A DNA stretch of 64,000 bases from contig JAWLHY010000002.1 in the NCBI GenBank assembly GCA_041690135.1, positions 752,342 to 816,341 on the forward strand, given 5' to 3'. The notes beneath the pieces are model-generated. The model was not told where the DNA came from and ran no database searches. It saw nothing but the letters and a program-made list of their open reading frames with translations. Source of the stretch: Armatimonadota bacterium (GTDB taxonomy: Bacteria > Armatimonadota > SYMT01). How positions within the stretch are numbered: the stretch's first letter is position 1; each line of letters opens with the position of its first letter. Positions 38,011 through 41,708 of the stretch are shown here, piece after piece. Position numbers and translations under genes: made by a program.

Positions 38011-38469
38011 TTGAGACTGGCAGAGGCCCTGGTATTGCGGGCGGATGTCCGCAAACGAATCGAGCAGGTGCGGGAGCGCCTGAAGCTGTCGGCGCTGGTG
38101 CAGGAGGGGGAGGAGCCGCCGGAAGACCCGCAAGAGCTGCTGGCGGAGCTGGATCGCTTACTGAATGAGCTGACCGCCCTGGTCCGCCGGATCAACCGGA
38201 CCAACCTGGAGGCAAGCCTCGCGGACGGGCGCACCCTCACGGACGCCCTGGCGGAGCGGGACACGCTGGCGATCTACCATAACGTTTTGCAGACCACGGC
38301 GGAGGCCGCCAGCCCGAAGCTGGACCGCATGGCCCGTGCGGAGATCCGGAAGGTGCCCACCGTGAAGGTGGCGGACCTCCGGAAGCAGGTCGATGAGGTG
38401 GCGCGCCGCCGCCGGGAGCTAGACACGCAGATCCAGGCGGCGAACTGGACCACCGATCTGCTGGACTGA
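38011..38469 (+). CDS. DIP1984-family helical protein
   Basis: GGAGG then TTG; RLAEAL.LRAD..KRIEQ..ERL...A.VQEGE.P.EDP..LL...RINRTN...LTDALAERD.L...D...R..R.LD..IQ.ANW.TDL. Confidence 0.9.
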   Translation: MRLAEALVLRADVRKRIEQVRERLKLSALVQEGEEPPEDPQELLAELDRLLNELTALVRRINRTNLEASLADGRTLTDALAERDTLAIYHNVLQTTAEAASPKLDRMARAEIRKVPTVKVADLRKQVDEVARRRRELDTQIQAANWTTDLLD

Positions 38470-38723
38470 TCCTCCCGCAATTGGGAGCACAAGCAGGTAG
38501 CCGGGAAAGCCGAGAGCCGGGGCACGAGGCGGCGACTGCCCGAGTCGCATCCTGGTCATCCCGAGGAGCCATGGGATGAGGAGGGTTCAAATCCCTCTGT
38601 GCACCGTTACGCTCAGCACCGTTACAGCGGCACCGAGCATCGCGCACTGTCACTACCACGTGCCAGCTACGGCGGACCCGGCGAGGGTGGGATTGGGGTT
38701 TCTTGTGCCCCCGAGAGGATCAG
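38466..38723 (+). ncRNA. Candidate structured ncRNA with tRNA T-arm mimic and internal repeat array
   Basis: 5'/3' complementary ends, nested helices, GAGGG-TTCAAAT-CCCTC arm, four GCACYG-type repeats, followed by a terminator. Confidence 0.65.
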
Positions 38724-38728
38724 AAAGC

Positions 38729-38763
38729 AGAACAGCCAACCCGCTGGGGGTTGGCTGTTCTTT
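38729..38763. terminator. Intrinsic terminator, probably bidirectional
   Basis: AGAACAGCCAACCC-GCTGG-GGGTTGGCTGTTCT + TT, between convergent DIP1984/RNA and tRNA. Confidence 0.8.
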
Positions 38764-38764
38764 A

Positions 38765-38841
<77 letters not shown>

Positions 38842-38873
38842 TCATCTCCGCTCCGGTTTCCCGGTGCGACCGT

Positions 38874-38902
38874 ATAGTAACACAGTCCCGGAGGGGAGTC
38901 AA
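38874..38902 (-). promoter_or_regulatory. Sigma70-type promoter of tRNA-fMet copy 1
   Basis: TTGACT-N17-TACTAT on minus strand. Confidence 0.75.

Positions 38903-41631: not shown

Positions 41632-41708
<77 letters not shown>

Follow-up and report, generated by a model that had tools for sequence, protein, structure and literature searches.

The window analyzed here, a stretch of 64,000 nucleotides (nt) from an Armatimonadota bacterium (contig JAWLHY010000002.1 of assembly GCA_041690135.1), harbors on its plus strand a gene of the DUF6847/DIP1984 family and, from the stop codon of this gene onward, a structured RNA that faces a convergent tRNA-Met(CAU) gene (Table 1). This RNA is a genuine conserved non-coding RNA whose family is coupled to the DUF6847 gene, with matches in five phyla. 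The protein encoded upstream of it is a full-length member of PF20935 (181.2 bits, E 1.3e-53, Pfam cut-off 27), scores 183.5 bits against the NCBIfam model NF038048 (cut-off 70) and matches PDB entry 3KDQ with E 5.3e-28. It has 1641 database relatives at E ≤1e-3, and DUF6847 proteins share 61-88% identity between phyla. Neither a function nor an RNA partner has been described for this family.

Coupling of the RNA to the DUF6847 gene

A BLAST search of 41 genomes (the window genome and 40 relatives) revealed a 73%-identical stretch in the relative G036, located directly 3' of a DUF6847 gene, and compensatory changes with respect to the window RNA are discernible by eye. In species-representative genomes 287 gene loci were found. 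The best 80 of these, from Armatimonadota, Chloroflexota (mostly Ktedonobacteria), Cyanobacteriota, Actinomycetota and Paenibacillus, were taken for the RNA search. The search employed a covariance model termed R1, which was preceded by a profile hidden Markov model and comprises 202 positions and 36 pairs, reaching from P2 through the G-rich loop and leaving out P1. R1 matched in all 80 loci and in all five phyla, always downstream of the gene and on its strand; two of the matches end at contig edges. In the window, the only match covers 38494-38698 (166.5 bits, E 3e-50), and nhmmer matched 38479-38713. The window score is the second of 85 R1 matches, but as the window row is part of the R1 seed, its own match is by construction; 28 of the loci L008-L087 are also in the seed, and the 50 loci outside it are the independent evidence. 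The median distance between the stop codon and the model start is 17 nt; 57 of the 80 loci have at most 30 nt, 13 have 31-100 nt and 10 exceed 100 nt. The 5' strand of P1 thus usually borders on the stop codon or overlaps it. In the window, the 5' strand of the outermost stem holds the TGA stop codon (38467-38469) of the gene, and nothing resembling a promoter was detected between gene and RNA.

The same association is found within the window's phylum. In an even sample of 121 Armatimonadota genomes, 12 contain a strong DUF6847 match (at least 157 bits), and in all 12 the RNA follows the gene directly and lies on the same strand. The RNA match is absent in 108 of the 109 genomes that lack a strong DUF6847 match, and three weak protein matches (20.9-28.5 bits) are accompanied by no RNA match. 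Together with the matches in the 80 loci, these results bear out the sequence-only reading of this region, which had proposed a structured non-coding RNA tied to the DIP1984 gene and had suggested a search downstream of DIP1984 homologs across phyla as a check. Genome G017, in which no DUF6847 gene was found, retains the 3' half of the RNA alone, beginning with the GCA/UAC tract and ending with the G-rich block, directly after a secretin-like gene (L007, ~1490-1600, contig C33). This half looks like a decayed remnant. In an Anaerolineaceae locus (L077), a single DUF6847 gene is followed by two tandem RNA copies (1995-2197, 121.8 bits; 2258-2472, 76.9 bits). The RNA region is single-copy in the 9.1-Mb window genome according to both BLAST and the covariance model, and the other six genomes of the window's own family contain no gene-RNA pair. 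The patchy spread, combined with the high protein identity across phyla, suits a horizontally moving module.

Architecture of the RNA

The minimum-energy fold of the plus strand has -146.7 kcal/mol (z-score -3.82, with 0 of 100 shuffles as good) and reproduces the stems, hairpins and T-arm that had been recognized by eye in the sequence, all of which are present at the positions first proposed (Table 1). RNAalifold predicted P2, P3/P3b and P4 from 67 sequences, with compensatory changes in 16 of 17 pairs. Pairing was also counted in two 30-sequence MAFFT alignments (A3 and A4) for structures named by the analyst. In A3, 70.7% of the cells are paired, compared to 46.0% in the best slid-partner control, and in A4 78.7% compared to 40.9%, with 0 of 500 shuffles reaching the value in either alignment; as the tested structures were partly derived from the window sequence and L040, these percentages are somewhat inflated, the double-change counts (changes on both sides in 37 of 43 pairs of A4) less so. 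Within A4, both-sided changes occur in all seven pairs of the P3/P3b helix, and P4 combines 92.0% paired cells with covariation in all five pairs. Hairpin A is paired in 92.6% of the cells, the H-type pseudoknot stem in 89.7% (GC 13, CG 8-9, AU 1-2), the second pseudoknot in 73.6-91.7% (one position with GC 12 and AU 7) and the T-arm in 77.9%, again with covariation. P1 was assessed apart from R1 by comparing cognate with non-cognate flanks: the cognate duplexes average -12.6 kcal/mol versus -6.6 kcal/mol, and 50 of 67 cognate but 250 of 789 non-cognate combinations reach -8 kcal/mol or lower, with relatedness between the sequences as a caveat. The RNA and its structure are real and do not represent a chance fold, with covariation behind four long-range helices, hairpin A, both pseudoknots and the T-arm.

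The first pair of P2 is a G-U pair in 40 of the 67 sequences. Because such pairs would be C-A on the other strand, the RNA is assigned to the plus strand. The minus strand of 38460-38765 folds at a z-score of -8.11, stronger than the plus strand, but an RNA on the minus strand was rejected, as the G-U pairs and all family matches are on the gene's strand. The C/A-rich tract becomes G/U-rich when reversed and pairs with itself promiscuously, which is a warning against choosing a strand by folding energy.

The 67- and 30-sequence alignments contain invariant unpaired blocks, namely GGUA(G), the opposite GAGGGNGGG-N3-GGGG, ACUACC and a series of A residues. The features that define the RNA are the two pseudoknots, the internal loop formed by the invariant GGUAG and GNGAGGGNGGG-N3-GGGG, and the tract of GCA/UAC units with a spacing of ~7 nt. 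The conserved A residues are located in this tract, at 38618, 38624, 38632, 38639, 38646 and 38652. The tract had been described as an apparently unpaired repeat; it is unpaired and shows a 7-nt rhythm of short GCA/UAC units, but it is not a sequence repeat. The initial choice between two inner stems is settled in favor of P2, P3 (GCCG/CGGC) and P3b, whereas GTAGC/GCTAC is discarded because GGUAG is an invariant unpaired block. A pairing of GGUAG (38496-38500) with CUACC (38653-38657) was likewise rejected. Both are near-invariant and sit at the two ends of the P2-P4 stack, far from each other, and the ACUACC variants ACGACC, AUAACC and ACAACC occur with GGUAG unchanged, so that there is no compensation. 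A brute-force scan of a further alignment, A5, for covarying columns yielded no further convincing long-range pair and returned mostly trivial G/U columns. The G-rich loop, with its GG, GGG, GGG and GGGG tracts, might conceivably adopt a G-quadruplex.

The T-arm shows a textbook T-loop sequence. A strict test (five pairs, a G-C closing pair and a T-loop-like heptaloop) detected it in 23 of 82 distinct RNAs, which is a lower bound as looser variants exist. It is present in all eight RNAs from Armatimonadota and both from Bacillota, in eight of 26 from Cyanobacteriota, four of 38 from Chloroflexota and one of five from Actinomycetota. Thus, the tRNA-like arm that had drawn attention to this region is real and covarying, but it is an optional peripheral module and not a defining feature. 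Hairpin A, hairpin B and the T-arm meet at the P4 junction in a cloverleaf-like topology, into which the unpaired tract is inserted before the 3' strand. This junction does not score as a tRNA in the window RNA. In an actinobacterial genome, ARAGORN calls a 96-nt 'tRNA-Arg(CCG)' within the homologous RNA (L062, 1977-2072), which indicates that in some lineages the junction resembles a cloverleaf closely enough for a tRNA finder to respond. The motif CCTGGT, taken at first for a D-loop-like element, is merely a linker conserved among close relatives.

The RNA region was also inspected for coding potential and termination. It had been stated to contain no convincing open reading frame (ORF). One of six frames is in fact open throughout 38468-38730, in GC-rich DNA, but the lengths of the 83 homologous RNAs of at least 170 nt in A5 are spread over the three classes modulo 3 (26, 26 and 31), which argues that the region is non-coding. 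The strong terminator reported behind the RNA exists as a hairpin, but it was scored on the minus strand, behind the tRNA-Met gene, and its T tail on the plus strand is short. It is therefore probably a bidirectional terminator.

Table 1. Positions of the DUF6847 gene, the elements of the RNA and the adjoining features in the window
Feature	Position	Strand	Remarks
DUF6847/DIP1984-family gene	38011-38469	+	152 amino acids; TTG start; GGGGAGG Shine-Dalgarno sequence before start
Whole structured RNA, outermost stem to outermost stem	38466-38723	+	~258 nt; conserved core 38483-38712
Outermost stem, CTGATCCTC with GAGGATCAG	38466-38474 with 38715-38723	+	9 perfect pairs; specific to the window genome
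P1, GGGAGCACAAG with CTTGTGCCCCC	38483-38493 with 38702-38712	+	One A-C mismatch
P1/P2 internal loop, 5' side, AAGCAGGUA	38491-38499	+	GGUA invariant in 67-sequence and 30-sequence alignments
P2, GCCGGG with CCCGGC	38500-38505 with 38677-38682	+	Compensatory changes
P3, GCCG with CGGC	38509-38512 with 38670-38673	+	
P3b, AGC with GCU	38515-38517 with 38666-38668	+	
P4, GGCACG with CGTGCC	38521-38526 with 38659-38664	+	Closes the multi-hairpin junction
H-type pseudoknot, GGC with GCC in hairpin A loop	38528-38530 with 38538-38540	+	Element spans 38528-38548
Hairpin A, GCGACT/AGTCGC	38532-38537 with 38543-38548	+	
Hairpin B, TCATCCC-N10-GGGATGA	38556-38579	+	Conserved loop GAGGAGCCAU
Second pseudoknot, hairpin B loop GAGC with tract GCUC	38566-38569 with 38611-38614	+	
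T-arm-like hairpin, GAGGG-UUCAAAU-CCCUC	38581-38597	+	Optional module of the RNA family
Unpaired C/A-rich tract, GCA/UAC units about every 7 nt	38598-38658	+	Ends in conserved ACUACC (38652-38657)
P1/P2 internal loop, G-rich 3' side, GAGGGUGGGAUUGGGG	38683-38698	+	Invariant or nearly invariant columns
GC-rich hairpin of 14 base pairs	38729-38761	either	Common to the RNA (+) and the convergent tRNA-Met gene (-)
tRNA-Met(CAU) gene, convergent neighbor outside the RNA	38765-38841	-	ARAGORN; Rfam RF00005, 58.1 bits

Comparison with known RNAs and genomic setting

At the gathering score, the Rfam cmscan of the whole window returned two tRNA-Met genes only. Within 38350-38900, matches with E up to 10 were noise only, the best of tRNA type being tRNA-Sec with 13.9 bits and E 8.9 (threshold 47), and there were no Y-RNA families among them. 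RAGATH-27 (RF03100), ROOL, GOLLD, raiA and OLE gave no match either in the whole window at the gathering score or in 38350-38900 with E up to 10. ARAGORN found neither a tRNA nor a transfer-messenger RNA (tmRNA) in 38466-38723, and tandem repeats of ~30-40 nt beside a nuclease toxin, by which the RNAs of type III toxin-antitoxin systems are recognized, are lacking. Thus the assignment to no named RNA family holds against Rfam, and a decayed tRNA, which had been named as a possible refutation, was not found by ARAGORN or Rfam. In contrast to these negative results, the window contains everything by which the R1 family is recognized: the P2-P4 stem, the pseudoknotted hairpin A, the GGUAG/G-rich loop, the GCA/UAC tract and a position 3' of DUF6847. 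In the literature searched on DUF6847, DIP1984, PF20935 and NF038048, no description of an associated RNA was found. The DUF6847-associated RNA is a new RNA family.

Three known systems share parts of this organization. The Y RNA YrlA has ends that form a closing stem and an inner T-arm mimic; it is encoded beside the Ro60/Rsr gene and occurs also in phages. The DUF6847 RNA resembles it in all of these respects, namely the closing stem, the T-arm mimic, the adjoining gene for a dedicated protein and the occurrence in phages. However, the putative partner of the DUF6847 RNA is a 17-kDa helical protein instead of a TROVE ring, and the genome's sole TROVE/Rsr gene (C2:299609) is located ~490 kb from the window. 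Pseudoknots, an invariant G-rich loop and a 7-nt tract are not known from Y RNAs. Directly upstream of the Rsr gene, on the same contig, positions 1333-1401 of locus L004 match the Rfam family ceN72-3_ceN74-2 with 36.5 bits (gathering score 38) and E 5e-5. These nematode small RNAs are relatives of Y RNAs, and L004 1333-1401 may be the real Y RNA of this genome. The second system, tmRNA-SmpB, consists of a small conserved protein and an RNA a few hundred nt long, in which a T-arm, pseudoknots and a functional single-stranded tract are combined. The DUF6847 RNA has similar ingredients, but its T-arm is internal and not beside a CCA-bearing acceptor end, the rhythm of its tract is 7 nt instead of 3 nt, and the lengths in the family are not frame-preserving. 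ROOL and GOLLD are ornate RNAs without known function, and mobile elements often carry them among tRNA genes. The DUF6847 RNA is likewise ornate and occurs in such a setting, but it is much smaller and strictly coupled to one protein family.

The gene occurs on 353 plasmid records, of which 325 belong to Acinetobacter. R1 recognized the RNA behind the gene on two plasmids, one from Picosynechococcus (91.4 bits) and the other from Mycolicibacterium (66.6 bits). DUF6847/DIP1984 proteins are often annotated as 'septicolysin', and in the literature this name appears in connection with Acinetobacter plasmids and in other annotation lists. The 'septicolysin' of the A. baumannii plasmid pA85-2 (L088) is a DIP1984-family gene with 37.5% identity to the window protein. 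It is followed by an unannotated gap of 322 nt (1963-2284), where R1 matches weakly but at the expected place (9.7 bits, E 0.007); this may be a divergent version of the RNA. On a viral contig (L091), a gene with 48% identity occurs together with eight tRNA genes and an R1 match of 24.3 bits.

In seven cyanobacterial loci the gene-RNA pair is located between tRNA genes of the same strand, six of these loci having 9-14 tRNAs within 3.4 kb, and in several of them the 3' strand of P1 is directly followed by the start of a tRNA. In another three loci, a tRNA gene precedes the DUF6847 gene. A study of such arrays reports that translational stress induces long tRNA arrays in the cyanobacterium Anabaena and that protein genes are 'frequently linked or embedded' in cyanobacterial arrays (PMC8421152). 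The same study mentions Anabaena all4315, a hypothetical gene that is induced by chloramphenicol and has homologs linked to tRNA arrays (PMC8421152); this gene could belong to the DUF6847 family.

The genes neighboring the pair in the window are unrelated to each other. No integrase or transposase was found among the 14 neighboring ORFs scanned (28-47 kb), and the window and G036 loci have no neighbors in common. The tRNA-Met(CAU) gene behind the RNA has a counterpart at 41632-41708, also on the minus strand and 2.8 kb away. The two differ at two positions and share the upstream leader GGAGATGAC. The interval between them contains an ORF of 308 amino acids without a family match and a methyltransferase gene.

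A putative ribonucleoprotein and its alternatives

The favored explanation is that 38466-38723 encodes a non-coding RNA of ~240-260 nt that serves as the dedicated partner of the upstream DUF6847 protein and forms with it a ribonucleoprotein linked to tRNA or translation. We regard this as reasonably probable. A dedicated ribonucleoprotein is the most economical explanation of the obligatory coupling. Co-transcription of gene and RNA appears to be the simplest reading, because the closing helix of the RNA starts at the stop codon. DUF6847 gene and RNA would thus be made as a single transcript, from which the RNA would persist as a compact, stable species; within tRNA arrays, it could be excised by tRNA-processing enzymes. 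Its architecture comprises a long irregular P1-P4 stem, the invariant purine-rich loop (GGUAG opposite GAGGGUGGG-N3-GGGG), two pseudoknots, an optional T-arm and the single-stranded GCA/UAC tract. A homodimer of the protein might bind the invariant loop, the repeated units or both, which would yield a ribonucleoprotein particle. This particle would most likely act on tRNA or translation, for example in translational stress or in phage-host conflict over tRNAs. Such a role is a reasoned guess, proposed because of the tRNA-like arm and the recurrent placement in cyanobacterial and phage tRNA arrays.

The window protein is predicted to be a helical homodimer. Its AlphaFold model consists of four helices and is confident, with a predicted local distance difference test score (pLDDT) of 87.9. 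A two-copy prediction scored 0.56 versus 0.00 for the best control, with runs agreeing in 100% of contacts and a partner pLDDT of at least 86. The mark applied is reached by 20 of 30 proteins solved as one-chain pairs and by one of 23 solved as single chains, and the pass may reflect memory of 3KDQ, an older four-chain entry. Two metatranscriptome contigs from different studies lie wholly inside the RNA, one of 190 nt (38481-38670, one mismatch) and one of 165 nt (38509-38673, two mismatches), and give a weak hint that the RNA accumulates. Runs X9 and X14 cover the tRNA-Met gene only, and nothing is concluded from the missing coverage of the coding sequence in runs X1 and X2.

Several observations weigh against a dedicated ribonucleoprotein of this kind. 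The protein is not basic (isoelectric point 5.64, 26 Arg and Lys versus 28 Asp and Glu), its model has 3KDQ as the sole significant Foldseek match and no fold relative of known function, and its putative binding to the RNA is proposed from co-occurrence. The RNA-only contigs have a depth of 4-5, end ~40 nt short of the conserved 3' end and could be library DNA. Where the RNA begins more than 100 nt past the stop codon, there is room for a promoter of its own. The link to tRNAs could be lineage-specific, as tRNA neighbors occur in 11 of the 80 loci, mainly in one cyanobacterial clade. The T-arm is found in a minority of the RNAs. As for the structure, only 47.6-55.3% of the cells in the hairpin B stem are paired in A4, where this part varies in length and aligns poorly. 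The periodicity of the unpaired tract is modest, its information content showing an autocorrelation peak of 0.31 at lag 7, and Tandem Repeats Finder reported 0 repeats in the RNA region.

The alternatives are less consistent with the data than a dedicated ribonucleoprotein, as far as a cis-acting untranslated region, a protein-independent RNA and a type III-like pair are concerned. In the first of these, the RNA would be a 3' untranslated element that stabilizes or autoregulates the DUF6847 mRNA, as an operator or a block to 3' exonucleases, and no separate RNA would exist. That the RNA always follows the gene on the same strand, with its closing helix at the stop codon and with no promoter-like site detected in between, agrees with this, but a stabilizer would need far less than ~200 conserved positions, invariant loops and a pair of covarying pseudoknots. 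The contigs of the RNA alone, as a weak hint, the ten loci with a distant RNA and the tandem copies at one locus also speak against such an element, and we consider it unlikely.

Rather improbable, too, is a self-sufficient large RNA like ROOL, GOLLD or raiA, acting as a scaffold, cage or ribozyme, to which the protein would be an accessory, a chaperone or otherwise linked. Size, ornate structure, mobile and patchy spread and placement at tRNA genes recall GOLLD and ROOL. However, Rfam yields no match to ROOL, GOLLD or raiA, and the coupling of gene and RNA is essentially absolute, the sole RNA without a gene being a truncated remnant.

There is little to recommend the idea that a repeat-bearing RNA neutralizes the protein, as in a type III-like toxin-antitoxin or plasmid-maintenance pair. 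The RNA does contain short repeated units, and small Acinetobacter plasmids commonly carry this mobile pair, but the units are not tandem repeats according to Tandem Repeats Finder. PADLOC found no match of the protein to defense or toxin models, and Foldseek found no nuclease-like relative of this helical bundle, which is unusually conserved across phyla. In addition, the order of gene and RNA is opposite to that of ToxIN-type systems.

A decayed tRNA or tmRNA, or the remnant of an attachment site beside the tRNA-Met gene, which the perfect T-arm, the weak tRNA-Sec alignment and the ARAGORN call in L062 might suggest, is refuted in practice by covariation and gene coupling and hardly deserves credence, since the region is single-copy, contains no tRNA or tmRNA according to ARAGORN and Rfam, and carries its T-arm within a family of ~200 positions that covaries in five phyla.

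Returning to the dedicated ribonucleoprotein, few bacterial particles built around a dedicated structured RNA are known. They include RNase P, the signal recognition particle, tmRNA-SmpB, 6S RNA, Ro-Y RNA and the CRISPR effectors, each of which founded a field. A more far-reaching proposal is that the DUF6847 protein and its RNA constitute a new mobile ribonucleoprotein of bacteria, plasmids and phages, with a tRNA-like face and protein-binding units spaced by 7 nt, which might work within tRNA arrays in the contest over tRNAs. It would serve there as a decoy, a sensor or a repair platform directed against toxins that cleave tRNAs, or would act as a rescue factor when translation is under stress. 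This proposal is tentative and on balance doubtful. If true, it would place a further tRNA-mimicking particle of bacteria alongside SmpB-tmRNA and Ro-Y RNA. A widespread protein family that was crystallized as early as 2009 and is still without a function carries an obligatory RNA neighbor. The routine labeling of its members on Acinetobacter plasmids as 'septicolysin', a virulence factor, deserves re-examination, and the gene-gap pair of pA85-2 casts doubt on the cytolysin annotation. The pairing of gene and RNA is also a candidate explanation for protein genes embedded in tRNA arrays, and it provides a testable handle on both the protein and the RNA.

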